From a virus: DNA of 64,000 bases. Below are positions 13,673-52,255 of this stretch, piece after piece. The stretch is from IMG/VR virus record IMGVR_UViG_3300010352_001565, positions 115,055 to 179,054 of that record, one strand, 5' to 3'. The notes under the pieces are model-generated. The model had not been told where the DNA came from. It saw only the letters and a list, made by a program, of their open reading frames with translations, and made no database searches. Position 1 is the first letter of the stretch. Each line of letters starts with the position of its first letter. The translations under genes were made by a program, and so were the position numbers.

Positions 13673-16600
13673 TTTCACGAGCACTACTCAAAAACATCGT
13701 TAATGAGTCGGTGACCTACCGGTTGCCGACATCAAAAAACGTCCTTTTCTTCGACTTCTACACGCTGGCCTTCCTCAACACGCTCATCCTTGATCCGACG
13801 GCGAAAGGATCGCGGGCCGCATTTACCCAGCGAGACAACGTCACGCACGATATTGAGTACGCTGAGAACCTCCTGGTCCCGCACCTCCGCAAAGAGCTGA
13901 TGGATGCCACGTTCCTGAGCATCTGCGCTGAGATCCGCCACCTTTACGACAACACACAGGACGAGAAAAAGATGCAGCAGATCGTCCAGTCTTCGGTGTT
14001 TAGAAAATACACCAGGAAATACGCTGAGCTGCGATCGTTCTCAGGTCTAGGAGCCGGCGCACAGCAGTACTCCAACGGAGGAAAGCAAGGAGCAGTCGCC
14101 AACGATATTCATCCGCGCCGAATCCGCACCAAGTTTGAGGGATCTCACAATGCCTACACCGTCTCAATGAAGGCGGCTCTATGGGCGATCAAGAAGTCCG
14201 GCCAGAGCGCTCGCGAGTTTGTGACTTTGTGCCGCTATGCTTTCGACAACCTCAGGTGGAGCTCAAGCTACGGCGGCCGCGCCTGGGCAAACATCTGCGA
14301 GGGTTGGCTGATGCTTCAAGACTCGCAGTCTGACAACATCAGGCGAGCCATTGTCAACATTGACCACGTGTTCGACATGCAGCACAACACGGGCACCGTG
14401 CTGAACAAAGTGAAGGAGTATGCGGTCAATGGTGGATACGGATGGCTGTCTGCCGGACTAGATTTTAAGGCTCACGCCACATCTCCGTACCTCCTGGTAG
14501 ACAAATGCTCCAGTGACATGCGCAAGCTTGCTCGGATGGCCTTGAAAGCTGCTGGTTACAGGGACGAGCGCATGGACGCCGCTCTGGCCGACGCTGAAAA
14601 GATGACGAGCAAGACAGCTCCAGTCGACAATGTTGAGTGGCTCGAAAAGTGGATGAAGAAGTCCGGTCAGCAGTTTTCGAACAAACATGGGGTCACACTA
14701 AAGAAGACGGTATCTGATGACGCGATCACCGGACTTGTTATCACAGGCCCCGCAGCTGCAGTTAACGACGCGTACAGTGCGTTCGGGGCGGCTGTTGAGT
14801 ACGCAAAGGGAACTGAAGGGTCTCCAAGCTGGGTTGGACACAGCATCGATCTTGATGGAAAGACCTGGATGATCGAGCTCGCAGCCAGCCACTCTAAATG
14901 GACGAACTGGCAAGCAGCGAACATTGCCGCAAACCACGGATGCACGTTTACTGAGAAAGCTGGAGAGATGTGGCAGGGGAACGCCGTATACTACGAGTTT
15001 ACCGGAAGCAAGGGAGCTGTTGAGTCCGTCATTCATGCATACGCCCAAGGAGACCACGGAAAGGAAATGGTTGTCAGAAAGCATATGCGTCCTGTTGATG
15101 ACAACGAGATTATGTCTGTTGAGTGCAACGCAGGAGCTGGATCGCACGAGTGGGCAGACAAGCATGCCGAAACCTGGCTGAGCGCTCAGGGCATGAACGA
15201 CGTCAAAGCGACAGGAACAAGCTCGGCAGTTGTTTTTACCGGTCCAAAGCACAAGCTTGAAAAGATAGTGAAAAAGTTCTATAGCGGGTATGACACAAAC
15301 ACCCCTGGTGGGAGCAAGCCTTACGTGGATGCCTCAATGCAGACCATGAAACCTGTGCTAAGCGACGATGACCAAGGAGCGGTCACTCTCAGGTCAAGCG
15401 GAGACCTTGCTTACTGGACGATCCACCACGGCCCAAACTTCGAGAAAAAGTTTGGGGTGAAGCTCACGCTTAAAAACGACCACGCGGTAGTCGTTGCTGG
15501 TCCAGTCGGAAGCATCAAAAAGGCGATACAAGACTTCTACGGCTCAGACGCCGTGATGGTCTCTCACTTGACGAAGAGCATCAAGAAGCTTCCTCCACTT
15601 CCAAAACTCCCCGCTGCGCAGAGTGGAGATCAGCAGCATTCGCTGACTCTTTCGGGAGGTCCTCCGAAAGGATACGACACCATGGCAAAATTTGCGGCGC
15701 ACCACGGGTGCACTGTAGATCCGGCTCCTAACATCGTAGACGGAGTCCCGATCTGGACAGTGCGAGGAAGCGCTAAAAGTATGTCAAAGCTTGCGCTGTC
15801 ATACTGCGAAGGTCGCGGAATCGCTCCAGAATCGGCGGCTGCGCACGCCAATAACCTTCTTCATCATGCTAAGCCTCCTATCACTCCGGAAATGTCAGGG
15901 CTGACTAAACCGGATAAACCGGCTGAAAAGAGCGATGGAGCCGTTTACACTGGTATCACAAAGAGCCACCTTTCACTCACTGACGCGAAAGGAATCGCAG
16001 AGACCTACATGTGCGAAATTAACACCGTCTACGCATCAACTGGATTTACGGTGTACCGCATAACTGGGCACAAGGCTCAAGCAAGCGCGGTGCTGTCAAA
16101 GCTCGGAAACAGCACGGAGTACCTGAACAATTTCCATCAAGTAACATTTGCCTCTTACAAGCTCAAAATGTACTGCAGTCCTCACGCCGACACGACAGAC
16201 ATCGAGGGATACGCGCAGCATAGGGGAGTCAAGGTTGTGATAGCGGACCAAGATCAAAACACTAAGCAGCATTTCTGCGAATTTACCGGAGGTCTGGAAC
16301 AGCTTCACGACGTGATCATCAACCTTACAACAGTGCATGACCCGACGACGACGGCGTTTAAAGACATCGCCCAGGGTGGAATCGCACCTCTGAAAAGCTC
16401 TAAAAGCGCTGCAAAGAGTGGGTCTGACGCAGCTAAGCTTGTCATCAAGGGGTTCAAGGTGGCACACTCTAAAGAGTACGCGGAGTACCACATCATTCCG
16501 TGGGCTGATGATCTCGGCGTTGAGTTCAAAATCAACAATCGAAACAAAGCGGGAATTGGCGGAGGAAACTACGCTGACTTGACAGGAACTAAAGAAGCTC

Positions 16601-17901
16601 TCGAAGCTTTCCTGAAGGGCTATTTTGGAACTTCTTTTAGCACTCCTGAGACCAACTACTGGCTGGCCCAAGCATCTCCAGTTCAGGCTCCAGCTCAGGC
16701 TGCTCCGGAGGCTCCTCAGCCAAAAGAAGCGCTTCACAAGCTCACACTCCATCTTCCGGGATACGGGATTGAGCACGCAATAAACTGGTCAGCGCATTTC
16801 GACTGCAAGGCTGAGGATCTTGGAGATGGATCCATACGGTTCACCGGAAATACAGAAGGAATGAAGAAGCTCATCCAAGCGCACCTCGCGAACCGACCTC
16901 AGAAAGTCCCGGAACTTTACGCCAAAGCTGAGCCGCCGATTCCAAGCAGCGACTATTTGGGGGATGGACCGCTTGGCCAATACTCTTACAGCACTAGGGA
17001 TGACAAGTATGCGTATGTTGATGTAAACTGCACGCAAGGCGTCGCAAACTCGGTGTGCGGAAAGTATAACTGTCACGTTCATGTCGGGTCAACTATCCGC
17101 ATATACGGAACTCCTTACCAAATTGAGCTGCTAGTCGGAGCTTACAGCGACATGCTGTCAGGAACGCTGTCTGCGCAAGGGGATCCCTCCAAGCTTAAGA
17201 TTGAGTACACTGAGGCGAGTGAGGTGATTGTGGACTTCTTCAACGGAGACGGGACTATCGCATACGTTGGGAACAAGAATGGATGCGCCGTTTACCACGT
17301 TGGAAACAAGAAATACAGGGTTGTTGGTCCTAAGGGTCTCGTGCACACCGCGCTTAACGAGCTGTTCGACGAGCCCACTGCGGCTAAGCTTGCTAAGGAA
17401 GTCGTTCCTGCGGGGTCAACACCGACAGCCTCAGCGAACAAGAAAAGCACGAGCAGCGCCTCGAGTGACGGCCCTAAATCTCCGTGGATGCGCTACTTCG
17501 GAGATTCGTTTGAAGTCCCTGACCAGCTGTGGACGCATCCCCAAGTCAAAGATTCGTCGAGCACGCCGGATCCGTGCCCGTCATTCATGCTCAAAAACAA
17601 CTTTGCCGTGATAATGTGGGTTGCGCATCCCGATAAAGAGAAGCGCGACACTTTTACAGACCGCTTCACGGTGACAGACGGCGGCCACAAGCCCGCTTAC
17701 GCGGGAGAAGATTTTGAAGCGGCATTCTCCGCCTTTTTAAGCTATCTTCCGAAGAAGCGCAAAAAGGCGGAGCCTGAGCAAAAGCCTGAAGAGCCGAAGT
17801 TTGATCCTCCGTTTGATCCGCCTCCTGGAACTGTAGAAAATGACGGACCGAGCGACGAAGGCGAGAAGCCAGATCCGACAGGTGGAAAACCCCCGGCATA
17901 G
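13669..17901 (+). CDS. large (1410 aa) protein, N-terminal ~450 aa paralogous to gene 49588; probable virion-associated
   Basis: GTG start after late motif; N-terminal blocks (SVTYRLP.SKNVLF.DFY.., FLSICAEIRHL, DHVFDMQHNTGTVLNKV) near-identical to 49588; C-terminal half holds ~5 repeats of a ~60-aa HHGC/.FTG module. Confidence 0.6.
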   Translation: MISRALLKNIVNESVTYRLPTSKNVLFFDFYTLAFLNTLILDPTAKGSRAAFTQRDNVTHDIEYAENLLVPHLRKELMDATFLSICAEIRHLYDNTQDEKKMQQIVQSSVFRKYTRKYAELRSFSGLGAGAQQYSNGGKQGAVANDIHPRRIRTKFEGSHNAYTVSMKAALWAIKKSGQSAREFVTLCRYAFDNLRWSSSYGGRAWANICEGWLMLQDSQSDNIRRAIVNIDHVFDMQHNTGTVLNKVKEYAVNGGYGWLSAGLDFKAHATSPYLLVDKCSSDMRKLARMALKAAGYRDERMDAALADAEKMTSKTAPVDNVEWLEKWMKKSGQQFSNKHGVTLKKTVSDDAITGLVITGPAAAVNDAYSAFGAAVEYAKGTEGSPSWVGHSIDLDGKTWMIELAASHSKWTNWQAANIAANHGCTFTEKAGEMWQGNAVYYEFTGSKGAVESVIHAYAQGDHGKEMVVRKHMRPVDDNEIMSVECNAGAGSHEWADKHAETWLSAQGMNDVKATGTSSAVVFTGPKHKLEKIVKKFYSGYDTNTPGGSKPYVDASMQTMKPVLSDDDQGAVTLRSSGDLAYWTIHHGPNFEKKFGVKLTLKNDHAVVVAGPVGSIKKAIQDFYGSDAVMVSHLTKSIKKLPPLPKLPAAQSGDQQHSLTLSGGPPKGYDTMAKFAAHHGCTVDPAPNIVDGVPIWTVRGSAKSMSKLALSYCEGRGIAPESAAAHANNLLHHAKPPITPEMSGLTKPDKPAEKSDGAVYTGITKSHLSLTDAKGIAETYMCEINTVYASTGFTVYRITGHKAQASAVLSKLGNSTEYLNNFHQVTFASYKLKMYCSPHADTTDIEGYAQHRGVKVVIADQDQNTKQHFCEFTGGLEQLHDVIINLTTVHDPTTTAFKDIAQGGIAPLKSSKSAAKSGSDAAKLVIKGFKVAHSKEYAEYHIIPWADDLGVEFKINNRNKAGIGGGNYADLTGTKEALEAFLKGYFGTSFSTPETNYWLAQASPVQAPAQAAPEAPQPKEALHKLTLHLPGYGIEHAINWSAHFDCKAEDLGDGSIRFTGNTEGMKKLIQAHLANRPQKVPELYAKAEPPIPSSDYLGDGPLGQYSYSTRDDKYAYVDVNCTQGVANSVCGKYNCHVHVGSTIRIYGTPYQIELLVGAYSDMLSGTLSAQGDPSKLKIEYTEASEVIVDFFNGDGTIAYVGNKNGCAVYHVGNKKYRVVGPKGLVHTALNELFDEPTAAKLAKEVVPAGSTPTASANKKSTSSASSDGPKSPWMRYFGDSFEVPDQLWTHPQVKDSSSTPDPCPSFMLKNNFAVIMWVAHPDKEKRDTFTDRFTVTDGGHKPAYAGEDFEAAFSAFLSYLPKKRKKAEPEQKPEEPKFDPPFDPPPGTVENDGPSDEGEKPDPTGGKPPA

Positions 17902-28742: not shown

Positions 28743-29570
28743 ACTGGAGTAGAAAATGCTACTACGCACGGCGTTAAAGTGCAACTTCGTGGCTACGAGG
28801 GACGGCTCGCTGCATCCACCCACAAAGCAGTCGTTCTCGTGCGCCGCACCGACCCACCCGTAGAAGCTGAGGAACCTCCCGCAGCACCAGAACTTTCTGG
28901 GTCACTCATCGGCGGAAAGCCCGTCCTCACCTGGACCGTCCCGAGCGGAGCCATTGGATTTAAACTATTGCGCGCCAGCGCATTCGATGGGATCTACACC
29001 ACCATCGCTTCAACTTATCTCGTTATGCCAACCTATACCGACAACACTGCTGTGAAGGGAACTCACTACTGGTACAAAGTCATCGCGACCACAGGCGTTG
29101 GAGGTACTGGCACAAATAGTTCCGATTCAAACGTCGTTGACCTTCTTCTGATTCCTGCCATTCCGACAAACGTCGTGGTGACCACGAATGGTCAAGGCGG
29201 TCTAACGATCAGCTGGACTGGATCCACTGGAGCGACATCGTACACCGTGAAGCGCGGCACATCTTCAGGTGGTCCTTACAGCACTGTTGTTGGTAACCCG
29301 TCTGGGACTAGCATCAACGACTCTGGTCTTGCCGACTCGACCACGTACTACTACGTGGTGTGCGCCACGAATGCGACCGGGTCAAGCGCAGATTCGGCCC
29401 AAGGATCTGGGACAACTCTCGCCCCCGCGGCTCCGAACGCTCCGGTGCTCACTGGAGTCCTTCAGGGAGGAGTTCCTAAGCTCGACTGGACTTCGCCATC
29501 TGGCGCTAACGGCTACGTGTTGAAGCGCTCGACTGATGGATCAAACTTCACCGACGTCTATACGGTTTAG
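28740..29570 (+). CDS. fibronectin type III repeat protein (structural/decoration-like)
   Basis: Three ~85-aa repeats with PSGA.G(F/Y).L.R and YYY(V/K)V.ATN FN3-like signatures. Confidence 0.6.
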   Translation: MTGVENATTHGVKVQLRGYEGRLAASTHKAVVLVRRTDPPVEAEEPPAAPELSGSLIGGKPVLTWTVPSGAIGFKLLRASAFDGIYTTIASTYLVMPTYTDNTAVKGTHYWYKVIATTGVGGTGTNSSDSNVVDLLLIPAIPTNVVVTTNGQGGLTISWTGSTGATSYTVKRGTSSGGPYSTVVGNPSGTSINDSGLADSTTYYYVVCATNATGSSADSAQGSGTTLAPAAPNAPVLTGVLQGGVPKLDWTSPSGANGYVLKRSTDGSNFTDVYTV

Positions 29571-29583
29571 TAGTTAGGGTATG
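29571..29583 (+). promoter_or_regulatory. late-type motif TAGTTA-N4-ATG
   Basis: gTAGTTAgggtATG. Confidence 0.5.
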
Positions 29584-30090
29584 AACGGCGTCCAAGTACA
29601 GATATGTGGCCAGGTAGGGTGGCGCGCGTCGCTAGCAGCGAGTGCGCTTGTCCCGGTGTCTGACGACCACGGAGGCACAGGCAATCCTGTCGACGTAACG
29701 GCTGAGCAGGTCGCCGCCAGCCTTGAGTTTCTCTTCTCAAGTCCAAATCGCGTCTTCACAAGAAGCATTGGAGTGACTGAGAGCGGAGAGATGTTCGACA
29801 ACATTGTTTCGAATGGGTCGTACAGCAGCTCGGTCAACGTCAACATTATCAAGGCTTTCTTCCTATCTCCAAATGGGGAGTATCTCAGAGTCGTCACCAC
29901 ACAGAATGATGGGACGCGCATCGATGACGTCATACCGGCTCCTGCTGGAATCGACCGCTCGATTGAATCTCCGATTGTCAGCGCGCTGATACGCAAGGCG
30001 ATGTCTGGAGGCCAGTACTACTTCTTTATGGGGGTTGACAACAACGGACAACGGATTGACGAAGTCCGGGACTATCCTCCTCTAGTGTAA
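29581..30090 (+). CDS. hypothetical structural-module protein
   Basis: 169-aa ORF after late motif. Confidence 0.5.
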   Translation: MNGVQVQICGQVGWRASLAASALVPVSDDHGGTGNPVDVTAEQVAASLEFLFSSPNRVFTRSIGVTESGEMFDNIVSNGSYSSSVNVNIIKAFFLSPNGEYLRVVTTQNDGTRIDDVIPAPAGIDRSIESPIVSALIRKAMSGGQYYFFMGVDNNGQRIDEVRDYPPLV

Positions 30091-30099
30091 AGCTCCTGG

Positions 30100-30112
30100 T
30101 AGTTACGCTATG
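30100..30112 (+). promoter_or_regulatory. late-type motif TAGTTA-N4-ATG
   Basis: ggTAGTTAcgctATG. Confidence 0.5.
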
Positions 30113-31825
30113 ATACGGCGTATACTGCTTGCAGCAATTCTCTTAACGGCTCTCACCGCACGCGCAGGAACTCCCGCAGTTTTCCCTCTTGAAGAGGAGC
30201 TGCAGGATCAGACGCGCACCAATATCGCGAACTGGATGGTGGACGGGATTAACAAGTACGCGACAACTCCGCTTGACGTTCAGCTGATCAACTGGTTCGA
30301 CACGGCCGACACTGTCATGACAAACATCCTTCCTGTCGGGATGCTTGGCTACACCATCGACACCATGCAGCTTAGAGTTGGAGACGGATGCACTCCCGGT
30401 GGCCTTCCGTGCTCCCCGATAAGCATTCGTCCGGCGACGAGAAACAACGGGTACGACACGGCTCCGATGACCGGAATAAAAGGTCTTATTTATGATCCAG
30501 TGTGCGTAATAGTGGACGATCCTCTGTATGCTGCGTATCGGCGGATGGAGTCTGGGATGCTCTCTGAGCGCGGAGGAGTTATACCATTTGCAACTCACAC
30601 AGGAATACCTGGAATCAACTCTACCAACTTTAGCCAAACTGGAGGGTTTAATCTGACGTACGGAACTGACTCCAGTGGAGGAGAATACGCTGGGGGTTAT
30701 CCGATGCTGCTGTCGCTCATAGGAGGAAACTCGTCCTCTGGAACGCTGCTTCGAGGAACCGGAGGGTTAGGACTGCAGGTTTATGCTAGAGGAGGAATGG
30801 GAGGATCAGGTTTTTACACTACAAACGATCAAGATGTGGTGACGCGACATCCTGGAGGAGCTGGAGGTCCAGGATTCGTTATAAGTGGGTTTGCAGGAAA
30901 CGGAGGAGCGACCACAACAAACAAGGATACTGGTGAAGAATACGTAGGAATTTACGCTCTTCCTGCGTTTACCATAGCTTCAAAAAGTGGAAATTCATGG
31001 ACAACGAACAGAGGAGGCCGCGGAGGAGAGATACGCGCATCCGGAGGAAACGCTTCCATAAACGGAAAAAGACGAGGGTACAACGGAGGAATAATCTCGA
31101 TGCAGTCTGGAACTTATGGAGACGCTGGGTGCTTGATCCTTGACGGAGGATGGACTAACGGAGGAACGCTTCAATCCGTACTAAGCACATACGTCTCCTC
31201 AACCATCTTTTCGTCATCCAGCCCATCAGGTCCAATCTTAACCACGGATGAAATAACGCTTTTGGATGGATTTTCTTGTTACTCGAACAACGTTGCAGGA
31301 CTTAGCAAGCCCGCTGGAGGTTTGATCAACTCAATGGATCAAGCTGACCAGCCGCTCGGGTACGAAGCTAAAAATATCCTTAGGATAGCTTCTATGGCGC
31401 ACGAGGGGAGAGTCATTAGGTTTAAGCTCAGCGGATACATGAAAACGTCGGGGACTCCGATGCTTAACGTCAAGCTTAAAATAGGGAGCGCAATAATGTT
31501 TGAAACAGGTCCGCAGCAACTCGCCCAAGCATCCGGGTCTGGACAGCAGAACACTTGGACATACTCAGGAGAGATTGTGTCCACGCACACATTCGGGTAC
31601 GAAAACGTAAGCGACTATTCGACATATTACATCGAGGCGGTAGGACAAGCGTCATTTCAGTACAACACGTCTCACAGCTCTCCGCTTCAATCAATATCTG
31701 TTCCAAAACTAGATTCGACTAGGATCCACTATCTTATCGACAACACTATTGACGTCACAGCGGCATTCTCGGAACCAGGGAACACGCTGATCTGCACCTG
31801 CTCACTATTTGAACTTGTAAACTAA
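30110..31825 (+). CDS. secreted Gly-rich fibre-like protein (signal peptide)
   Basis: MIRRILLAAILLTALTARA signal peptide; N-terminal module like gene 970; Gly-rich GGxGG segments. Confidence 0.55.
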   Translation: MIRRILLAAILLTALTARAGTPAVFPLEEELQDQTRTNIANWMVDGINKYATTPLDVQLINWFDTADTVMTNILPVGMLGYTIDTMQLRVGDGCTPGGLPCSPISIRPATRNNGYDTAPMTGIKGLIYDPVCVIVDDPLYAAYRRMESGMLSERGGVIPFATHTGIPGINSTNFSQTGGFNLTYGTDSSGGEYAGGYPMLLSLIGGNSSSGTLLRGTGGLGLQVYARGGMGGSGFYTTNDQDVVTRHPGGAGGPGFVISGFAGNGGATTTNKDTGEEYVGIYALPAFTIASKSGNSWTTNRGGRGGEIRASGGNASINGKRRGYNGGIISMQSGTYGDAGCLILDGGWTNGGTLQSVLSTYVSSTIFSSSSPSGPILTTDEITLLDGFSCYSNNVAGLSKPAGGLINSMDQADQPLGYEAKNILRIASMAHEGRVIRFKLSGYMKTSGTPMLNVKLKIGSAIMFETGPQQLAQASGSGQQNTWTYSGEIVSTHTFGYENVSDYSTYYIEAVGQASFQYNTSHSSPLQSISVPKLDSTRIHYLIDNTIDVTAAFSEPGNTLICTCSLFELVN

Positions 31826-31826
31826 C

Positions 31827-33203
31827 ATGAAACTTAAACTAACGCTTCTGTTGCTGCTCGGTCTTACTTCAGCGCTTCCTGCTGTGGTGGTTAAATCCCG
31901 TCCTCCAACTCCAGTTCAGTGGTCAGTAACGAATTTGGATTGGAAAGTGGCCGATCCAGCTTCGTTTACCATGCCTCCGTTCACAAAAGATGTGTCGTAC
32001 GGAGTTGTTAAAAAGATCCTCTATTTTAGAGACTATGCCATAACGCGCAATCCTCAGTGGGGAATCTCCACCATAGGGAGCACTTTCGTTTTAAACGAAG
32101 ACGGAAGCAAAGCGATTCAGATTGGAAATGAACCTGGAAGACTAATTTTAGTTTATACCACTCCGCACGGGACGATGACCGCTAGGCTGTCATCCTCACC
32201 GGTTGGAGGTCAGCTTGAGGAATACAAGGACTACAAGCCTGGGACGCTAGGATACGACCTAAAGCACGGGATGTACCCATACTACGCCGGAAAAACAAAC
32301 CTTAGCACTCAATGGAGCTACTGGAGAACGTTTTACAGAAACAGAAACTGCTGGATGTACGGAATGGACATGTCGGGTCTCGCTACAGGCGGTCCTGACC
32401 ACCAACCTTGGACGGCCCAGAACCACGGACCAGACCTCACTTTGATTTCACCGAGTTATGCAGTAACTGCAAAGCACTGCTTAGCATATCCAGGTCTCAC
32501 AGACAAGGTCACAGGATGGACTTGCTACAACGAGGCGCGCTTCACATTTGACAACCATGGCATCGAAGAGGTTGAAAGAGTCACCCACTTCGAAAGCGAA
32601 TCTGGAGAGGTATTCGAAAACTTCATGGACGAGATCGTCTCGTGCCCAGACTCAGCGAAACAATCTGACCTGGTGCTTATCCACTTCAGATACCCATGCC
32701 CGTCATACATCCATCCATTCCAGGTGTTTACAATGGCTTACCATGACTATATCACCACCCCAATGAGCAGCGTTCCAGTCATGTGGCTCAAAAATAACGA
32801 CATCCACGGAAAAAGCGACTACTACTGGGGAGGTCTTATGGTTCTCGGGTATGGAACGGTAGAAGGAGGAAGCTGCAGTGCTAAAATGGTAGACTACACA
32901 TTCAAAGCAGTTCCGAACGAGTGGTACGACGTCAACGAGCTAGACCCCTACATGAATGGACCTTTTGCCCCGTTTGGTTTTAACGCTGCATGGGGAGGAG
33001 ACAGTTCTGGCCCTGTCTTTACCATCCTTAAGGACAACCCACTCCCAGTATTTTTGTTCGCGGTTCAGTCAGCGTCGATCAGCGGACCTGCAATAACAAA
33101 TGAAAGAGAGCTAGAGTGGATTGTAAAAGAGCTCGCTGACCACGGAGAGCACCTTAACGAAGTTGATTTGTCAAAATACCCTAAACTGAGCGAACTTCCA
33201 TGA
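31827..33203 (+). CDS. secreted trypsin-like (S1) serine protease, paralog 1
   Basis: Signal peptide MKLKLTLLLLLGLTSALPA; His motif VTAKHC (cf. TAAHC); Ser motif GDSSGP (cf. GDSGGP); C-terminal DLSKYPKLSELP shared with paralog 2. Confidence 0.65.
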   Translation: MKLKLTLLLLLGLTSALPAVVVKSRPPTPVQWSVTNLDWKVADPASFTMPPFTKDVSYGVVKKILYFRDYAITRNPQWGISTIGSTFVLNEDGSKAIQIGNEPGRLILVYTTPHGTMTARLSSSPVGGQLEEYKDYKPGTLGYDLKHGMYPYYAGKTNLSTQWSYWRTFYRNRNCWMYGMDMSGLATGGPDHQPWTAQNHGPDLTLISPSYAVTAKHCLAYPGLTDKVTGWTCYNEARFTFDNHGIEEVERVTHFESESGEVFENFMDEIVSCPDSAKQSDLVLIHFRYPCPSYIHPFQVFTMAYHDYITTPMSSVPVMWLKNNDIHGKSDYYWGGLMVLGYGTVEGGSCSAKMVDYTFKAVPNEWYDVNELDPYMNGPFAPFGFNAAWGGDSSGPVFTILKDNPLPVFLFAVQSASISGPAITNERELEWIVKELADHGEHLNEVDLSKYPKLSELP

Positions 33204-34516
33204 GAACACTAGTCGCACTGCTATTTTCTGCATACGCCGCCGTCGGCGGTCAGCTCGTGATGAAAGGAAAGGCTCCCGTTCCAGTAAACACAAAGCTGGA
33301 CCTAGCCCTTCGAAGGATCGACGTTCCGTTTACTGAAACGCGCGGCGAGACTATTAAAGGAGCGTTCACTCGCACGAGGGTCAGCCCTATCTGGTACCGC
33401 GAATACAACCCGCAGGTCGTTTGGCCGATGACTTCGATCGGTCCTGTCAGCGTTTCTGGAAATAAAGTGTCTGAGCTTGCGGACGGAAACGCTGTTGTTT
33501 GCTTTAGCACTCCTTACGGGATTATGACAAAACGGTGGTGCATAAAAACGGGAGGAGGGCTTTCATTCACAGACACTGGGTATGCTGAAGGAACGCTTGG
33601 CTACAGCCTTCAAAACGGAATGACCCCGCACTACGCCGGAAAATACGACGAGTCGCAGTGGAGGTTCACGAACACCTACAACAGGAATCCGAACTGCTGG
33701 ATGAAGGACCTTGACATGACCGGGCTGTCGACAGGAGCTTACGCAAACAGGTACGTTTACGACACCCCTCCAGTTCCAGACGCCGGTCCTAACAGGTCTG
33801 GGTTTGACTGCATCCTCATATCTCCGAGCTGCGCAATCACCGCCTGGCACTGCATAAACGGAACAGACGTGGATGTTGTCGGATATGCTCCTGGAAACGG
33901 AGAGACGACTCCATTCATAGCTGCCGACGGAACTGTGCACATAAGCAAAGCCACAACATTCTGGAATGTCTCTAAGGCCGTTAAAGCGTCAGATCCTGGA
34001 AACCCGGGCTACGACCTTTGCCTCGTCATACTCGACACCCCTCTTCCTCCAGATATTCACCCGTTCCAGATGATTCCTCCATGCTTCACAAACTATGTTC
34101 CAAACACTGGATCTTCCGGATACCCAATCCTAAACGGAATTCCAGTTATGTGGTTGAGAAACAACACTCAGAAGATGAATATTCAGTACCTTGGAGGAGA
34201 GAGCATAAATTGGCCGTGGATGGACTACGATCGTGACCCATACTCGGACAGCTACGAGCTCGGGTCCTCAGCAACGTATCCTCGGGTGTTATTTACAGAG
34301 CATGACGCAAACGGGGGAGACAGCGGCGGCCCTGCATTTGCAGTGCTTAAAGATGATCCACTTCCAGCGCTTGTCCTTGTAATTCACGGTCCAGTGTTTG
34401 GACCGACATACTGGTCCTCATACGATTGGATTACGAACAAGATATTCCAGACGTGCGGAGAGAAAGTTCACGAGATCGATTTGTCAAAGTACCCAAAGCT
34501 GGAAGATCTTCCATAA
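33200..34516 (+). CDS. secreted trypsin-like (S1) serine protease, paralog 2
   Basis: Signal peptide; ITAWHC His motif; canonical GDSGGP; C-terminal IDLSKYPKLEDLP; ATGA overlap with paralog 1. Confidence 0.7.
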   Translation: MRTLVALLFSAYAAVGGQLVMKGKAPVPVNTKLDLALRRIDVPFTETRGETIKGAFTRTRVSPIWYREYNPQVVWPMTSIGPVSVSGNKVSELADGNAVVCFSTPYGIMTKRWCIKTGGGLSFTDTGYAEGTLGYSLQNGMTPHYAGKYDESQWRFTNTYNRNPNCWMKDLDMTGLSTGAYANRYVYDTPPVPDAGPNRSGFDCILISPSCAITAWHCINGTDVDVVGYAPGNGETTPFIAADGTVHISKATTFWNVSKAVKASDPGNPGYDLCLVILDTPLPPDIHPFQMIPPCFTNYVPNTGSSGYPILNGIPVMWLRNNTQKMNIQYLGGESINWPWMDYDRDPYSDSYELGSSATYPRVLFTEHDANGGDSGGPAFAVLKDDPLPALVLVIHGPVFGPTYWSSYDWITNKIFQTCGEKVHEIDLSKYPKLEDLP

Positions 34517-34521
34517 AAGTG

Positions 34522-34550
34522 TTTACAAATCCATGGAAGCGCTGTACTGT
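34522..34550 (+). promoter_or_regulatory. sigma70-like promoter P5 (TTTACA-N17-TACTGT), ATG 6 nt downstream
   Basis: aaaagtgTTTACAaatccatggaagcgctgTACTGTgcttccATG. Confidence 0.45.
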
Positions 34551-34556
34551 GCTTCC

Positions 34557-35072
34557 ATGAAGTCATTCATCAGCGTAACGCCGATCCCGTCTGCGGACAC
34601 CGATCTCACTCGGTACGCCGCCGTGGTCAATGTCTCAGATAGCCCTGGGCGGGCGTTTAGCAGCCCAGTTCCACACTTCTGGTTTCCGATTCATGAGACC
34701 GGCTTTTGGGGATACCACGCTTTCTACGGTGCTGCGAAAGTATTTGACAAGTTTCGAGACCAAGGCCAGATTCTGATCCACTGCCACGGCGGCATAAGCC
34801 GCAGCCCATCAGTCGCGTTTGCCATTGCGCTGTCTGAGTTTCAGTCCTGGGTTCAAGCTGAGGAGGCTTTTGGTTATTACGGCAAGCGATACGGAGACGC
34901 TTACCGAGTAGAGCTTAACAGAAAGCGCATTCCAAAGGACGTGGTCAGGTTTCTAATTGAAAGGAAGGTGCATCCTACGTTCAGCCTAGGGGGTCTTCTT
35001 ACATCGATCAAGTCTCCAGATGCTTTCCCTCCAGGATGCAACAGAGGTCATAAGGGGCTCATTGCGGCATGA
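34557..35072 (+). CDS. dual-specificity/tyrosine protein phosphatase
   Basis: Active-site loop IHCHGGISRS (HCx5R(S/T)); ~170 aa DSP size; taken from the in-frame ATG 6 nt after P5 -10 rather than ORF-track start 34398. Confidence 0.65.
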   Translation: MKSFISVTPIPSADTDLTRYAAVVNVSDSPGRAFSSPVPHFWFPIHETGFWGYHAFYGAAKVFDKFRDQGQILIHCHGGISRSPSVAFAIALSEFQSWVQAEEAFGYYGKRYGDAYRVELNRKRIPKDVVRFLIERKVHPTFSLGGLLTSIKSPDAFPPGCNRGHKGLIAA

Positions 35073-35446
35073 ACGGCGTTAAGTCATCAGACAGAGCTTG
35101 GTACGCACCCGACGGAAGGGTGGGTCTGATGCCCATTCGCGGCATAAAGTTCGTTGAGCTCCCTAAAGTTGGGCAGTACGTCCAGGCTTTGCAACCGTGC
35201 GGCACCGGAGAGACGTCAAAGGCTACGTTCTCAATTTATTCTCCTGTAAGCGGCAAAGTGGCAGAGGTTAATCACAAAGCAATTTCAGACCCGTCAAAAA
35301 TATCGACCGACCCGTACGGAACGTGGCTGTTCAAAGTAGCCGCAACAAGCGGGACAGGTCACCTTAAAGCATGCAAGCCCTACCAAATAAAAATCACCGG
35401 ATCTACCTCGTCACACCCGAAACGATTCCTCCGCCGTCCGTTGTGA
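35069..35446 (+). CDS. glycine-cleavage H-protein-like lipoyl/biotinyl carrier domain protein
   Basis: IKFVELPKVGQYV.....GETSKATFSIYSPVSGKVAEVN...DP..I..DPYGTWLFKV parallels GcvH VFVELPEVG..ESVKAASDlysPvsGevvevN..DPygeGWl with Lys at lipoylation position. Confidence 0.55.
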   Translation: MNGVKSSDRAWYAPDGRVGLMPIRGIKFVELPKVGQYVQALQPCGTGETSKATFSIYSPVSGKVAEVNHKAISDPSKISTDPYGTWLFKVAATSGTGHLKACKPYQIKITGSTSSHPKRFLRRPL

Positions 35447-35883
35447 TACGCCACATAACTCGCGAGGTCGCGGATCTTAAGGCTTCGGTATTCTCTGGAG
35501 TTGGAGTTCCGCCACATCTCATCAACCCGCAATCGTTGGACATGAGGGCCGCTGAGCAGCTGTTCGTGGCAGCGGCGTCTGAAGCAATCACGCGAGAAAT
35601 TGCGAACAATCCTGACATTGAGAAGGATCACGCCTGCCGAGTAATGGGGATGCGAAAGTCAGACTACGACGCGGCAGTTCGAGCTTACAGGTCGGATGGC
35701 TACAAGCGCTCGTCTCGAAAACGAAAGAGGCACTGGAAGCGCCAGGTCTACCTCATCATACAGAAGAGGAAGGCTGGATGGGTTTCGAACTTCGCGTCAG
35801 TGTACGGTCATCCAAGCAAAGAAATCTCCGTTCTAATCGGGCATGGAAAACCTCGAAACGGAAGCGCTTCAGTCTGTCCTTGA
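35371..35883 (+). CDS. hypothetical basic protein (true start probably internal)
   Basis: ORF overlaps gene 35069 by 75 nt; basic C-terminal part. Confidence 0.3.
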   Translation: MQALPNKNHRIYLVTPETIPPPSVVIRHITREVADLKASVFSGVGVPPHLINPQSLDMRAAEQLFVAAASEAITREIANNPDIEKDHACRVMGMRKSDYDAAVRAYRSDGYKRSSRKRKRHWKRQVYLIIQKRKAGWVSNFASVYGHPSKEISVLIGHGKPRNGSASVCP

Positions 35884-41106: not shown

Positions 41107-41114
41107 GCTTGTGT

Positions 41115-41996
41115 ATGCCAGATCAAAACAACACTGAACTCGTTACGACCGTCGGCGTCGAGATCGAGATGGAAAACACACGGAATGTCAACTCAGATGT
41201 CCGTTTCATCTCTGACAAGCTCTCCCGTGCCGGTCTCAACTGGGTCGTTAAAACAGACGCTTCTTGCGGCCGCTCTGGAGCGGGAGTTGAGCTAAACTCT
41301 CCCATTCTGCGCACCGACGCTGATCTCAATTCTGTGTCGAGAGTCTGCGAAATGATGGATGAACTTGGTTATAAGGTGACGAAGAAATGCGGGTTGCACG
41401 TCCATATCGACGTCCGCCGTCTCACTGAGGACGAGAGAAACCGCCTTATCCGCTTCTTTGTCCAATACCAAGACTGCTTCTTTGAGCTCGCTCCTGGACG
41501 CCGCGCGGTGCACTACTGCGCGCCGCTGACGGCAGACGTGCTTGCTAAGCTGCGGCAAAACCGCGGTTGGTCTGCGTGGTCTACCCGCTATTTCTGGATG
41601 AACGGGTGCGCTTACACGGAACACGGCACTGTTGAGTTCCGCCTGATGAGTGGCAGCCTCAACCCGAATCATGTGACTGGATGGGTCAACTTCTTGCTTT
41701 ATGTCTATGACAAGGTTGTGAACCACGGAGCTTTCGGAGACGCCACATTCTTCCATCCAGATGCTTCGACTGGACGCGACTGCTTTGACAAAATGCTGCA
41801 CGTCACTGGACTTGACAACCTCGAGGTTGAAGGTCGAGCTGAAGTTGCTCGCAGCTGGGTGACCGCTCGCTGGGACGACGCTCACTCAGATGTCCAGTCA
41901 ATTCGCGCCGAACGACGCCGCCGCCTCCAAGCTGCTTGGCGCGGTGAAGCCCCGTATGTGAAAATCGTATCGCCTAACACCACAATGGCTGACTAG
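41115..41996 (+). CDS. glutamine-synthetase-fold amidoligase (Amidoligase_2/GCS2-like), paralog A
   Basis: TVGVEIEM first strand, GLHVHIDV, VEFRLMSGSLN; same three blocks in genes 43378 and 56981; ORF track start 41109 is alternative upstream codon. Confidence 0.6.
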   Translation: MPDQNNTELVTTVGVEIEMENTRNVNSDVRFISDKLSRAGLNWVVKTDASCGRSGAGVELNSPILRTDADLNSVSRVCEMMDELGYKVTKKCGLHVHIDVRRLTEDERNRLIRFFVQYQDCFFELAPGRRAVHYCAPLTADVLAKLRQNRGWSAWSTRYFWMNGCAYTEHGTVEFRLMSGSLNPNHVTGWVNFLLYVYDKVVNHGAFGDATFFHPDASTGRDCFDKMLHVTGLDNLEVEGRAEVARSWVTARWDDAHSDVQSIRAERRRRLQAAWRGEAPYVKIVSPNTTMAD

Positions 41997-42303: not shown

Positions 42304-42822
42304 TTGGTCATGCTGTCACGGCGTGTTCTTCTGCTCATGAGCAGACTCTACGCTTTGAGCAAAATAATCTCGTTCCATGACTTGCGCACCTGGAGATCTC
42401 ACCAAGCCGGAAAGGTGGTCGCGACCAATGGAGTCTTCGACATACTTCACGCCGGTCACTGCTCATATCTTCAGCAGGCAAAAGAGCTCGGAGACCGCCT
42501 TGTCGTAGGAATCAACAGCGACTTCGCCGTCAAGTCCCTTAAAGGACCGGCACGCCCAGTAAACTCCCAAGACCACCGCGCCCAGGTACTTGCAGCTCTC
42601 GAGTGCGTTGACGCAGTTTGCATTTTCGACAGCACAAACGCTTCCCTATTTCTTATGCTTGCCGACCCGACCATCTGGGTGAAGGGAAGCGACTACAATA
42701 TCGACAAGGTGAATAAAGAAGAGCGGGATGTGCTTCAGAGCCTCGGGACTGAGATCAAATTCATTCCTTTAGTGGTCGGACTTTCAACAACTTCAACCAT
42801 CGCCAAGATCAATGGACTTTAA
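42304..42822 (+). CDS. sugar-1-phosphate nucleotidyltransferase, RfaE domain II/HldE-like (ADP-heptose synthase-type)
   Basis: TNGVFDILHAGHCSYLQQAKELGDRLVVGINSD..VKSLKG..RPVN..R..VLAALE.VD.V..F...KG.DY parallels RfaE-II FTNGCFDILHAGHVSYL..A..LGDRLIVAVNSD.S.KRLKG..RPVN; HxGH motif. Confidence 0.7.
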   Translation: MVMLSRRVLLLMSRLYALSKIISFHDLRTWRSHQAGKVVATNGVFDILHAGHCSYLQQAKELGDRLVVGINSDFAVKSLKGPARPVNSQDHRAQVLAALECVDAVCIFDSTNASLFLMLADPTIWVKGSDYNIDKVNKEERDVLQSLGTEIKFIPLVVGLSTTSTIAKINGL

Positions 42823-43381
42823 GAAGGATCCGAAGTGCGCCCCGATCGAAATGCGCCGAGATGTGGAGCACCTGGTTGAGATGATCTACACCAACCTGAA
42901 GCAGCCGTATGCATCAATCTGGATCTCCCAGGTGACCCTCCTGGCTCCTCGGTGCAACACAACTAAGCTGTGCAAGGCCATGACATTCTGGATCCTTAAC
43001 GAGCTTACTGGGATGGTCGATTCAATTCGCGCTAGACGCCTAAAAAGGACGATTGCGTTTTACTACAAAATCCATACATCCGAGGCGGCGCACTGCAAGG
43101 CGCTTGTTCATCGGAAAACAAAGAAAGCGGCTCTCCGGTCCAGGGGATACGCCCAGAAGTTCGCCGTTCAGGCCATGGCGTTTGCAATTAAAAACGGGTA
43201 CCGCTCATCAGCCCAGGCTCTTAGGGCGTGCATGCTGTCGCGAATCGCGGTCCGCTCAGGGTCTAAGAAGCACTATCAGCTCAGGCCACATCTTGCTCCT
43301 CACACAGATCCGTTCGGATGCTACACCCATGCCGCCGTAACACTTCTGGTGATGCTTAACCGCTTTGTAGTTAAGCAGTGA
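42812..43381 (+). CDS. hypothetical basic protein
   Basis: 189-aa ORF. Confidence 0.4.
   Translation: MDFKKDPKCAPIEMRRDVEHLVEMIYTNLKQPYASIWISQVTLLAPRCNTTKLCKAMTFWILNELTGMVDSIRARRLKRTIAFYYKIHTSEAAHCKALVHRKTKKAALRSRGYAQKFAVQAMAFAIKNGYRSSAQALRACMLSRIAVRSGSKKHYQLRPHLAPHTDPFGCYTHAAVTLLVMLNRFVVKQ
43368..43380 (+). promoter_or_regulatory. late-type motif TAGTTA-N4-GTG
   Basis: tgTAGTTAagcaGTG. Confidence 0.45.
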
Positions 43382-44373
43382 ACGCCAGACGCGAAATTTG
43401 CAATCTGTTTGAGGACGCTGATCTCAATCTTGGCAGCGTTGGAATTGAGATCGAGATGCTTGCCAGGAAGGACTTGGTTGCAAACCGAGAGCTTGAAGCA
43501 GTTGTCCGCCAGCTCGATTTCACGTACGGGTTCGACGATTCTGTCACTCCAATGGCAGGAAGCCTTGAGGAGCTTTACACAAACGTTGAAATCTCAATCG
43601 GTCCTGATAGGTGGGACTGGATCTCCAAGCGGTTGATGAAGATGCTGGCGTACCTCAAGCACGAGGACTACGTCGCGGTTTCTCGAAAGCACTCAAACAG
43701 CCCTGTCTCAATTTCAACTGAAACGGATCTCTACTCTGATGGCGCAAAGAAAATCAGGCTCGCAAGAGCAAGGGTCCCTCAAAATTTCTCCGCCGGAGTT
43801 CACATCCACTTCGACGCCAACAGCTGGTTTTCAGGAACAGAGCACGCAGCTCGGTTTGTCAAGGTGCTAAATCGCTGGATTGAAGATGTTCCGAGACACC
43901 TGCCAGTTCAGCGTTACGGAAACGACGGCGAGCGAGGCCACGAGTTCGCCAGGATCCAAGGTTATCACGAATTGAACGGGGACAACTGGGGATCAGGATA
44001 CATCAAGCCAGCGGAGTATTTCCACAGAATAGGAAAGAATGTTGACAGGTTCATGGCGCTCAACGTTAAACCAGCTCTGAAACGCGGCGACATTGAGTTC
44101 AGATTCATGCACGGAACTCTCAACTACGCAACAATCGCGGGTTGGTTTGAAACCCTGGCAGAGCTTATGACATACGCGCAGCGCGAGCATGGAGGGTTTT
44201 CGGACTTCGTAGCTTGGTCTGCAAAGAAAGCTCCTGAGACCAAGAAGTTCATCGAGAAATCGTACAAGCTGAGCAAGGCGTCAAAAGAGCCGATCAGAAT
44301 TTCCCCATCAAGAGCCGCTAAAAAGATCCTCAATCCGCGGGCGGCTGACGCGCCTGTGTCAAACCCGGCATAA
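43378..44373 (+). CDS. GS-fold amidoligase, paralog B
   Basis: SVGIEIEM, GVHIHFDAN, IEFRFMHGTLN. Confidence 0.6.
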   Translation: MNARREICNLFEDADLNLGSVGIEIEMLARKDLVANRELEAVVRQLDFTYGFDDSVTPMAGSLEELYTNVEISIGPDRWDWISKRLMKMLAYLKHEDYVAVSRKHSNSPVSISTETDLYSDGAKKIRLARARVPQNFSAGVHIHFDANSWFSGTEHAARFVKVLNRWIEDVPRHLPVQRYGNDGERGHEFARIQGYHELNGDNWGSGYIKPAEYFHRIGKNVDRFMALNVKPALKRGDIEFRFMHGTLNYATIAGWFETLAELMTYAQREHGGFSDFVAWSAKKAPETKKFIEKSYKLSKASKEPIRISPSRAAKKILNPRAADAPVSNPA

Positions 44374-49580: not shown

Positions 49581-49590
49581 TTAGGGGGTG
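49578..49590 (+). promoter_or_regulatory. late-type motif TAGTTA-N4-GTG (TAG is stop of upstream gene)
   Basis: gcgTAGTTAgggGGTG. Confidence 0.5.
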
Positions 49591-51444
49591 AGCTCAGCCA
49601 AAGCACTGCTCGAAGGCCTTGTACAGGAGTCGGTAACGTACCGACTTCCAGCGTCTAAAAACGTCCTGTTTTACGATTTCTACGCCCTCGCCTATCTTCA
49701 GAGCCTTCAACTCGATCCTGAAGCGAAAGGTTCAGACTCTTTCAAAGGAGCTTCTCAAACGTCGTTCACTACCAGAGACTCTGTTTCGCGCGATGTTGAA
49801 CACGCTGCTGGGGTGCTAATTCCGTACCTTAGAAAAGAGCTTAGTAACGCCACCTTCTTGAGCATCTGCGCCGAGATCCGGCACCTGTTTGACAACCATC
49901 AAAGTCCAGAGTTCTGGCAGACGATGACGAATCACCGCCTGTTCAGGTTGTACGCGAGGAAGCAGGCGGAGGCTGTTAGTAGCATATCAAACCTTCCAGG
50001 AGTCAACCGTCCAGTTAGGACACCTCCCGTTTCAGGAACTCAGCCAGGATACGACAAGGCCATGAAAGCGGCCATCTGGGCCATCAAGAAAGGTGGCTCC
50101 ACGATGGGCGAGTTTGTCAGGCTGGCTAGGTATGCGTTCCAGCGCGGTCACTGGAGCTCGTCATACGGCGGTAAGGCGTGGGCTAACATCTGCGATGGAT
50201 GGGAGATGCTCAACTCGGACAAGTCAAACGACCTCAAGTCTGCCGCTGTCGCGATAGACCACGTGTTCGACATGCAGCACAACACGGGCACGGTGCTCAA
50301 CAAAGTCCAGGAGTATGCAATCAACGGCGGCTATGGCTGGCTTTCAGGAGCGTTGAACTACAAGGCAAGCGTTAAATCGATACATGCGCTCCTTGACAGG
50401 TGCTCGAGTGACATGCGCAAACTTTCTAAGGTGGCGTTGAAATCAGCTGGAATACCTGATGAGCACGAGCCTCCTCCGAAGACTCTCAAGCTTGCTGGGT
50501 ATAACGCACAGCCTCCTGACCCTCCGTTGCACGGCAAAGTTGGAGTGGTAGACTCCGCAGGAAACTTCCAGACCACCGCCATAAACCTTACCGGAAGATT
50601 CAAATTCCCGGAAGGAGCGATCGGAAACATTGACGCTCCCGCATGCACGGTTATCAGCGGACCTATAACGTTCCCTGAAAAGTGCAAGAGGCTTTACTTT
50701 CCGAATCTCGTAGCAGCGTCGTTTGACATCGTGTTTCCTCACGAGTGCGAGACCATCAGCATGCCGCGCATTCAACATCCTCACTTTAAAAATCTCCCAT
50801 TTAAGTGCCAAGACTTAAATTTTCTTGGCGCTCTAAGCTTACCGTCGGGATTCGCATTTCCAAAAGTGTGCGGCGACGTCTATCTGAAAAGCTTGAAGCA
50901 CTTTCCGATGAATGTGGTATGGCCAGAAAAGTGCGGCTCTTTTCATCTTGACAGCATGAAAAGCGAAGAGCTTTTGAAGTTCGAAAACCTTCCACAAGCA
51001 CACTTTCTATGCCAGGACAAAATGGTGAACGGGATAGCTCAGGTGGCGCCTAAAGGAGACGAGCCCAAAACTGAAAAGACGCCTCACTGGGTTAAGGAGT
51101 TCGGACCTGAGTACGCTGTTCCTATTGAGCTATACAACAACTCTGATTTTGTGGATGGCTCGTGGCACAACGATGCATGCCCTAGTTTTTACTACCACCT
51201 GAGCGAAGACCTTATAATTTACTGCGAGCACCCTGATCCAGACAAGCGCGAAGATACCTGCAGCGCAAGGTTCACGGCGTGCAGTACCAACGAGTTCTCA
51301 GGCTTTGTTACTTTCTACGAAGGGGACGACGTGCGACGCGCCATGGAAGCGATCAAGAAGGCGTACAAAGAAGGACCACCGAAACAGCAGGAACCGCCAA
51401 GCCAAGAGCCTCCGGCTGGACCCAACCTAAACATCAAAATCTAG
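49588..51444 (+). CDS. 618-aa paralog of gene 13669 N-terminal module, with C-terminal Cys-containing leucine-rich-type repeats
   Basis: N-terminal ~450 aa collinear with 13669 (many identical blocks); C-terminus has repeated F(P)xxC..L..(I/V)..P units (BspA-type LRR-like). Confidence 0.6.
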   Translation: MSSAKALLEGLVQESVTYRLPASKNVLFYDFYALAYLQSLQLDPEAKGSDSFKGASQTSFTTRDSVSRDVEHAAGVLIPYLRKELSNATFLSICAEIRHLFDNHQSPEFWQTMTNHRLFRLYARKQAEAVSSISNLPGVNRPVRTPPVSGTQPGYDKAMKAAIWAIKKGGSTMGEFVRLARYAFQRGHWSSSYGGKAWANICDGWEMLNSDKSNDLKSAAVAIDHVFDMQHNTGTVLNKVQEYAINGGYGWLSGALNYKASVKSIHALLDRCSSDMRKLSKVALKSAGIPDEHEPPPKTLKLAGYNAQPPDPPLHGKVGVVDSAGNFQTTAINLTGRFKFPEGAIGNIDAPACTVISGPITFPEKCKRLYFPNLVAASFDIVFPHECETISMPRIQHPHFKNLPFKCQDLNFLGALSLPSGFAFPKVCGDVYLKSLKHFPMNVVWPEKCGSFHLDSMKSEELLKFENLPQAHFLCQDKMVNGIAQVAPKGDEPKTEKTPHWVKEFGPEYAVPIELYNNSDFVDGSWHNDACPSFYYHLSEDLIIYCEHPDPDKREDTCSARFTACSTNEFSGFVTFYEGDDVRRAMEAIKKAYKEGPPKQQEPPSQEPPAGPNLNIKI

Positions 51445-51814: not shown

Positions 51815-52255
51815 ATGACGTTAAAACAAACTATATTGGTCACTGCTGTATCCATCACTTTACTTAGTTCGATGGACTCAACTGCAAAATCACAAGAAAT
51901 CGTAGCGGCTGTCCTGATCGCTGAAGCTGGGGGAGAAGGAGTTCAGGGAATGGAAGCCGTCTACGAGATCATCAACAACAGGTCCGTTCGTGGAAAGAAA
52001 TCGTACGAAGACGTAGTCACGCAGCCCGCACAGTTCTCGTGCTTGAACGGAGTCACCACCGACGATCTGATCGCAAAGTCAAAGCAGCATCCTCGCTGGG
52101 AACAAGCGCTTCAGATGGTCAAGTCGCCTCCGACTACTCGATATGCGAATGGGGCGACTCACTATTACGCGAACTGGATCAAGAAGACTCCGAAGTGGGC
52201 AGTGGGAAAAACCCCCGTTGCTACACTTGGAAAGCACCTCTTCTTCAGGATCTAG
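51815..52255 (+). CDS. SleB-like cell-wall hydrolase (Hydrolase_2 family) with N-terminal signal/anchor; endolysin candidate
   Basis: Signal-like N-terminus; AEAGGEGVQGMEAVYEIINNR .. QPAQFS .. THYY blocks typical of SleB/CwlJ cell wall hydrolase domain. Confidence 0.6.
   Translation: MTLKQTILVTAVSITLLSSMDSTAKSQEIVAAVLIAEAGGEGVQGMEAVYEIINNRSVRGKKSYEDVVTQPAQFSCLNGVTTDDLIAKSKQHPRWEQALQMVKSPPTTRYANGATHYYANWIKKTPKWAVGKTPVATLGKHLFFRI

Follow-up and report, generated by a model that had tools for sequence, protein, structure and literature searches.

A tandem pair of predicted exported S1-fold serine proteases encoded with a fibre-like protein in a jumbo-phage-like element

Why does a large phage-like element carry two adjacent genes for apparently secreted, trypsin-like serine proteases? 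The question is raised by a stretch of 64,000 nucleotides (nt) from a virus (IMG/VR record IMGVR_UViG_3300010352_001565, positions 115,055 to 179,054; hereafter the window), in which the two genes, here called A and B, follow the gene of a 571-amino-acid (aa) glycine-rich, fibre-like protein. We document the open reading frames (ORFs) and their paralogy, the fold, the conservation of the triad, the distribution of the family, its synteny and the coupling of the genes, and we infer that A and B are probably active S1 endopeptidases which are exported with the fibre-like partner and act on surface proteins of the host. The two proteins add a clade and an architecture, both new and unannotated, to a protease fold that is well known, and the conserved genetic partnership of this clade with fibre genes is previously undescribed. 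All coordinates are those of the window, and the operon described here and the gene that follows it lie on the plus strand.

Gene A (31827..33203; 458 aa) starts 1 nt past the stop codon of the partner gene, and gene B (33200..34516; 438 aa) overlaps the end of A by an ATGA. The initial annotation had described an adjacent pair of paralogs with the S1 His and Ser motifs; the ORFs lie exactly where it had placed them, with the motifs as described, and A and B are paralogous with 31% identity over approximately 478 columns (BLASTP, E 1e-52). The catalytic residues of A are His217 (VTAKHC; codon 32475..32477), Asp281 (SDLVLI; 32667..32669) and Ser393 (GDSSGP; 33003..33005), in columns that hold His in 60, Asp in 59 and Ser in all of the 61 family sequences. 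By family column and motif, the corresponding residues of B are His217 (ITAWHC; 33848..33850), Asp272 (YDLCLV; 34013..34015) and Ser375 (GDSGGP; 34322..34324); the spacing of 55 and 103 residues is chymotrypsin-like, and the oxyanion Gly373 is conserved in 60 of 61 sequences of the family alignment. The His and Ser motifs of B align with His57 and Ser195 of urokinase, whereas the equivalence of the Asp is one of position and of D(L/I)x(L/V)(V/I) context, not of residue-level superposition. At the equivalent of position 189 in the S1 pocket, B has Asp369 and A has an Ala. Loss of the triad had been named at the outset as one finding that would refute the protease assignment; the triad is conserved, and the assignment is not refuted on this point.

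The same conservation bears on the idea that A and B are non-catalytic trypsin-fold binding modules (pseudoproteases), as are haptoglobin or UmbA of the Streptomyces umbrella toxins. We consider this very improbable, since His, Asp, Ser and the oxyanion Gly have been kept in 59 to 61 of 61 sequences at about 20-30% overall identity, which is a signature of selection for catalysis.

The family itself was assembled by an exhaustive HMMER search, which yielded 60 remote relatives; P0010 and P0054 were rejected as members because they represent spurious repeat matches to the NCW...GLATGG stretch. The family is recurrent yet unannotated in curated libraries, with marginal recognition by Pfam: among 65 relatives, Trypsin (PF00089) was found in three (E <= 0.01) and Big_2 in five, and B scores 20.7 bits against a PF00089 cut-off of 20.6. 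Matches in PHROGs were restricted to the immunoglobulin (Ig)-like N-domains of a few members, and no match to the family was found in NCBIfam or PADLOC; in view of the absent PADLOC match, a role in a defence system was rejected. Searches with A and B alone gave no match in PHROGs, and single-sequence searches gave none in the PDB (phmmer) and none to the pair in 50,697 phage records (blastn and tblastn). A peptide-pattern search of IMG/VR was also negative, a word-indexed search of 5.8 billion proteins returned the query and its paralog only, a third homolog search (alignment A4) added no further members, and one bacterial relative (P0003) used as lone query found no relative in GTDB.

An AlphaFold2 model built from the two paralogs alone had a pLDDT of 26.7, and a good model was obtained only with the 65-sequence alignment. 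It has the overall fold of the S1/PA clan, in which two six-stranded beta-barrels form the cleft that holds the active site. In BFVD, the sole full-length structural match (E 5.6e-16) was a Caudovirales protein, uncharacterised and from an uncultured phage. A and B share the same layout, with a predicted Sec-type signal peptide, an N-terminal beta-sandwich, an NCW...DxSG linker, the S1 domain and a C-terminal cap. A crude neighbour-joining tree separates a signal-peptide-like branch from a branch of approximately 350-460 aa proteins without signal peptides; A and B are sisters in this tree, with or near the signal-peptide branch and with P0050 as closest relative, and hence appear to stem from a tandem duplication.

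Both proteins were claimed from the start to carry Sec-type signal peptides, and their N-termini look the part. In A the signal-peptide-like segment comprises approximately residues 1-19 (MKLKLTLLLLLGLTSALPA; 31827..31883), and in B approximately residues 1-17 (MRTLVALLFSAYAAVGG; 33200..33250), of which residues 2-15 are helical in the model. Both have a basic n-region (MKLK and MR, respectively), an uncharged hydrophobic core of at least 11 residues with a mean Kyte-Doolittle hydropathy of 2.2-2.5, and small residues at positions -3/-1, and the 571-aa partner and a 705-aa protein encoded elsewhere in the window (970-3087) show signal-peptide-like N-termini by the same heuristics. A and B are thus probably exported, as judged from these sequence features. 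Some assemblies annotate A from Met49, as a protein of 410 aa (P0002). We prefer the long form with signal peptide because the first 48 residues of A can be aligned with the N-terminus of B, and because six contigs from independent samples (L001-L006; ENA, JGI and Logan) are 100% identical in DNA to positions 30051-34600 of the window (4.55 kb). The element is, by this identity, strikingly clonal across datasets.

At their other end, both proteins finish in DLSKYPKL(SE/ED)LP (DLSKYPKLSELP in A, residues 447-458, 33165..33200; DLSKYPKLEDLP in B, residues 427-438, 34478..34513), and the initial annotation had taken this motif for a sorting or anchoring signal. Its identity in 10 of 12 residues, in paralogs otherwise 31% identical, speaks for such a signal on free secreted proteases, as does the location of some bacterial relatives next to exosortase/PEP-CTERM genes. 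The core of the motif is, however, family-wide: at its C-terminal end the domain has the consensus [VI]-D-L-S-x-[YF]-[PT]-x-[FYL] (D in 49, L in 51, S in 40 and Y/F in 53 of 61 sequences), family proteins typically end about five residues past the aromatic residue, and only the last four residues, (S/E)(E/D)LP, are particular to A and B. The cap is equally found in about 45 members without signal peptide, and it is internal in multidomain members, where it is followed by 860 residues (P0028), 238 residues (P0019), a second protease domain (P0024), or 29 and 21 residues (P0053 and P0025). Furthermore, in the model of B the cap lies directly after the canonical C-terminal helix of the catalytic domain, with a pLDDT above 90.

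Known sorting signals were compared by their recognition motif, transmembrane helix and basic tail (sortase LPXTG, PEP-CTERM/exosortase and GlyGly-CTERM) or, for the type IX secretion system, by a C-terminal beta-sandwich domain of about 80 aa, and A and B resemble none of these. They end 11 residues beyond DLS with no hydrophobic segment or basic cluster, no transmembrane helix, basic tail, LPXTG, PEP or GlyGly element follows the cap, and no PEP-CTERM-type tails or proteins were found in the window. P0003, which is encoded beside an exosortase-like gene, also has no PEP-CTERM tail. A sorting or anchoring role is therefore highly unlikely; the cap reads as a structural element of the domain, or possibly as a docking element, given its family-wide distribution, its internal position in some members and its modelled place after the helix. 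Gene conversion as a cause of the common C-terminus of A and B was considered and rejected, with codon identity in the motif at 7/10 versus 81/147 gene-wide at conserved residues.

The 571-aa gene (30110..31825), A and B form one operon, which extends from a TAGTTA-N4-ATG start element (30100..30112) to a hairpin (34532..34559). The start element precedes the first gene of the operon and contains TAGTTANNNNRTG, of which the window has 12 copies (0.29 expected); each of them lies on the plus strand, at the start of an ORF. The 571-aa protein has a predicted signal peptide of A-x-A type (MIRRILLAAILLTALTARA|G), and homologs of it are encoded upstream of protease relatives on two other contigs (L012 and L015). 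It gave no PDB match, by single sequence or by profile, and no NCBIfam or PADLOC match. Directly behind the signal peptide, it shares a module of 37 residues with the 705-aa protein (43% identity, E 7e-8), with the remainder of the two proteins unrelated. This looks, by sequence, like a common attachment or docking module, and a common attachment module is typical of fibres that use one adaptor. A patatin-like phospholipase gene (3093-3968) lies downstream of the 705-aa gene.

The hairpin has arms of 11 bp, begins 16 nt past the stop codon of B and is the sole inverted repeat of at least 10 nt within positions 29500-35500; its folding energy is -19.5 kcal/mol (z -4.03), and none of 200 shuffled sequences was as stable. 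It could be a terminator without U-tract, or an element of translational control, and its arms hold both candidate start codons (34533 and 34557) of the gene that follows (34533..35072). This gene had been described as a protein phosphatase gene with its own promoter. The first part of that description is supported, in that a dual-specificity/protein tyrosine phosphatase (PTP)-like gene does follow outside the protease operon (Pfam DSPc at 26.5 bits and E 6.2e-6, under the cut-off of 33.5 bits; PTP loop HCHGGISRS at 34779). As to the second part, a promoter-like TTTACA-17 nt-TACTGT (34522..34550) is located 6 nt before ATG 34557 as a degenerate copy of the sigma70-type cassette described below; its -35 element and its spacing to the ATG are those of the cassette, but the -10 element (TACTGT) is weak and overlaps the hairpin, and the promoter is thus unproven. 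A boundary of the transcription unit between B and the phosphatase-like gene is likely.

The coupling to a fibre-like gene recurs wherever the family was seen in a phage-like setting: in six of six such contexts, the window included, the protease gene starts -4 to +5 nt from the stop codon of a gene for a fibre or receptor-binding protein (RBP)-like product (gaps of +1, +1, +2, +2, +5 and -4 nt). Two relatives (P0073 and P0066, on L007 and L008) directly follow a receptor-binding tail-fibre gene with an Mtd_N domain, and holin or amidase genes come next. In the complete podovirus MW202510.1 (L014), the relative forms the distal end of the structural operon and is flanked by a beta-helix 'rhamnogalacturonan lyase'-like gene and an fn3 gene. 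On L012 (783-9329), two giant fibre-like genes (970 and 1513 aa) flank that of P0020 (364 aa), and each of the three products has a signal-peptide-like N-terminus; P0050 is located on a 51.8-kb phage-like contig (L015) with Cpn10, Laminin_G_3, He_PIG and a T4_Y16D-like giant protein. The 571-aa gene of the window has homologs in the genes upstream of P0020 (E 8.8e-28) and P0050 (E 1.3e-23), with homology that reaches the terminal FELVN / VEIVN / FELIN, and the neighbours on both contigs were not recognised by PHROGs. Phage members of the family are thus almost always translationally coupled to a receptor-binding or fibre-like gene that lies immediately upstream. Proteases of this kind had been called very unusual cargo for a tailed phage; with relatives in at least five phage-like contigs, in every case beside a fibre/RBP-like gene, they are simply unannotated.

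Such tight coupling would also be expected of a maturation or assembly protease, with A and B trimming or chaperoning the upstream fibre-like protein rather than cutting host proteins. The highly conserved extreme C-terminus of the partner is consistent with this, and the same type of predicted export signal on partner and proteases would imply a common compartment. We nevertheless regard this explanation as rather unlikely: at least three unrelated families are represented among the upstream partners, which is hard to square with one specific cleavage site, two paralogs as diverged as A and B (31% identity) would be odd for a single client, Ig-like (Big_2) domains such as those at the N-terminus are typically found in proteins with a binding or structural role, and bacterial members of the family are fused to large surface proteins instead of lying beside fibres.

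The holin and amidase genes next to P0073 and P0066 are relevant to another explanation, in which the proteases would help progeny to escape late in infection by weakening proteinaceous layers of the envelope, such as outer-membrane tethers or a surface coat; the signal peptides, called heuristically, would place A and B in the envelope. This is improbable. The relatives near lysis genes have no signal peptides, the last structural gene before a lysis cassette is the normal place of a fibre gene, and the sole lysin-like gene of the window, encoding a SleB-type hydrolase (PF07486, Hydrolase_2; approximately 51815-52255), is located 17 kb downstream of the proteases.

The bacterial relatives come from two Kiritimatiellae and one Verrucomicrobia metagenome-assembled genome (MAG; L018-L020), in which secreted proteins of 1,035-1,102 aa with thrombospondin-type (thrombospondin-3) repeats and a choice-of-anchor Q domain end in this domain as their C-terminal module, and in which a small PEP-CTERM gene follows each surface-protein gene; a frameshift splits the L018 copy (pseudogene or assembly error). 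A stand-alone relative of 291 aa (P0003, L010) adjoins an exosortase-like gene and PEP-CTERM proteins. Contexts of the domain in bacteria of the Planctomycetes-Verrucomicrobia-Chlamydiae (PVC) group were thus seen in L018, L019, L020 and L010/L011. These PEP-CTERM-linked relatives hint at a PVC-group host of the element.

For the action of the module, we propose as the most likely mechanism that the fibre-like partner and both proteases would be exported together, that the partner would target the module to a structure on the host surface, and that the proteases would cut proteinaceous surface components of the host, possibly a PVC-group bacterium. This could take place at the fibre tip, where the proteases might aid entry as a protein 'depolymerase', or at the surface of the cell already infected, with destruction of the receptor as the possible result. 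A surface protein is suggested as target because the phage relatives are located in receptor-binding modules, by analogy to the polysaccharide depolymerases, and because the bacterial relatives are surface-protein modules near PEP-CTERM loci.

Several observations weigh against this proposal. The signal-peptide calls were made by heuristics only (charge, hydropathy and the residues at -3/-1), and signal peptides, where real, speak against a simple role in the tail fibre, because the cytoplasm is the normal site of virion-protein assembly. For PF00089, A reaches 12.0 bits (E 0.19), which is under the threshold, although it is a full-length paralog of B with all three triad residues. The link of the 571-aa partner to recognised receptor-binding proteins is weak: its family matched the Mtd_N-bearing partners with an hhalign E of 3.7e-4 and a probability of 36%, centred on LRVGDGxTxGG, and Mtd_N (PF18454) was not detected in it by Pfam even at E <= 5. 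The six identical assemblies leave no variation for an analysis of selection. Finally, the window together with its 10-kb flanks (about 84 kb) yielded no recognisable capsid, portal, terminase or tail-tube gene, so that phage identity and structural context are unproven; from its gene content, the element (up to 222.7 kb) resembles a jumbo phage. The pair had been placed in a structural/late region, which holds weakly in that fibre-like, fn3 and Ig-containing genes are neighbours, but metabolic genes are interspersed and the hallmark genes are those missing from the 84 kb.

The signal peptides fit an action on the infected cell's own envelope (receptor destruction, or release) better than classical virion assembly in the cytoplasm. 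Yet on L012 the whole fibre module bears signal-peptide-like N-termini; export signals on an entire fibre module thus recur in this group of elements. A more specific version, which we entertain as a doubtful possibility, is that of a Sec-exported fibre and protease module which shaves the receptor or coat of the infected cell, or of fibres and tip proteases that mature outside the cytoplasm, in either case recruited from PEP-CTERM-associated surface proteases of the PVC group. If true, a receptor-shaving module would represent a protease-based system for receptor destruction or superinfection exclusion.

How do A and B relate to known systems? Peptidase S1 (PF00089, PA clan), which includes thrombin, matriptase and the Streptomyces trypsins, is matched by A, B and their family at or below the Pfam threshold. 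A and B differ from it in the extra N-terminal beta-sandwich, the NCW...DxSG linker and the conserved cap past the last helix, most of the family has PRH...AH in place of TAAHC, and the genes of A and B are coupled to fibre genes. No evidence for zymogen activation by insertion of the N-terminus was found for the A/B family.

Other products known from the position at or just after the 3' end of a fibre gene, and co-expressed with it, are gp38 of T4, Tfa of lambda, Mu and P2, and peptidase S74 (endosialidases, T5 pb1). Peptidase S74 is a serine peptidase of fibre biogenesis, with a Ser-Lys dyad and fused in cis; Tfa and gp38 are not proteases, and to our knowledge none of the three bears a signal peptide. 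A and B share with them the position after a fibre gene and the co-expression, whereas the folds are unrelated.

Virion-borne depolymerases are tailspike glycanases and lyases (PMC6966330). Like these, A and B would be enzymes tied to the receptor-binding apparatus that degrade a surface layer of the host, and the relatives on L014 and L012 adjoin beta-helix, lyase-like fibre genes. The known depolymerases are, however, polysaccharide-cutting beta-helix trimers, whereas A and B are proteases on separate polypeptides, and a literature search found no description of a chymotrypsin-fold fibre enzyme. Trypsin-like serine proteases have been annotated in the T4-like rhizobiophages phiM9 and P10VF, with context and function unknown (PMC10783043); these are S1-type, like A and B, and encoded by large tailed phages, as A and B probably are, but show no detectable similarity to B (tblastn of B against the 50,697 phage records).

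The bacterial modules (L018-L020 and P0003), in contrast, belong to the same family, with the blocks NCW, PRH..H, DQEEKA, GDSGNP and DLSxF, and are extracytoplasmic. In the MAGs the domain is fused, chromosomal and beside PEP-CTERM genes, whereas A and B stand alone, as a duplicated pair that is partnered by a fibre-like gene.

Among known phage enzymes that clear a path to the host surface, nearly all are glycanases or lyases. An S1 family that is widespread, unannotated and welded to receptor-binding genes would point to protein-degrading fibre enzymes, which may serve as tools against S-layers, pili and protein coats and would be a new class of host-range determinant. The signal peptides on the whole fibre-like module raise the question of where it is assembled and acts. 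The PEP-CTERM link in Kiritimatiellae and Verrucomicrobia is the first lead to a host of the element, and it also suggests a function for an uncharacterised bacterial surface-protease domain.

Two kinds of start-associated elements are found across the window. TAGTTA, 4 nt before an ATG or GTG, occurs at positions 13659, 20750, 21390, 28730, 29571, 30100, 36471, 39278, 40258, 40625, 43368 and 49578; no Shine-Dalgarno sequence is visible at these starts, and the consecutive genes at 28740, 29581 and 30110 each have the element. The element might act as a -10-only promoter that gives near-leaderless mRNAs, or as a signal for translation initiation. The second kind is a set of eight near-identical cassettes on the plus strand (4061, 21771, 25000, 39855, 41098, 46160, 56966 and 58916), each with AAAATAGTTGCAAATAAATG, TTTACA, a 17-nt spacer and TGATATAGT, in this order, located 5-8 nt before an ATG; the exact 9-mer of the cassette occurs nine times (0.2 expected). 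This arrangement implies sigma70-type promoters that give leaderless mRNAs, and the cassette genes probably represent a different temporal class from the TAGTTA genes. A minus-strand copy of TGATATAGT inside A was rejected as a promoter; it has no -35 and UP architecture and is mere coding sequence.

For the wider gene content, the window and its 10-kb flanks encode a dihydrofolate reductase (5932-6447), two thymidylate-synthase-like proteins, a thioredoxin, several Amidoligase_2 proteins, an AAA ATPase of a PHROG-only family, the SleB-type hydrolase and the patatin-like protein mentioned above, and fn3/Ig-rich proteins. The thymidylate-synthase-family genes are located at 52648-53697 and 56113-56928, with a kinase-like gene at 55094-56107; the second may be of the dCMP/dUMP hydroxymethylase type, which hints at modified DNA bases. 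The Amidoligase_2 (PF12224) paralogs are encoded at 41109-41996, 43378-44373 and 56981-57961, and a further copy lies outside the window (L021, 14157-15152). They are accompanied by genes for a GCV_H-like lipoyl/biotinyl-carrier-type protein (35069-35446), a cytidylyltransferase-like protein (42304-42822) and the dual-specificity-like phosphatase, and the set may constitute a system for peptide or metabolite modification. Two large proteins of 1410 aa (13669-17901) and 618 aa (49588-51444) have in common an N-terminal domain of about 300 aa (phrog_20946, function unknown) and also a similar C-terminal segment, and both genes start with the TAGTTA element.

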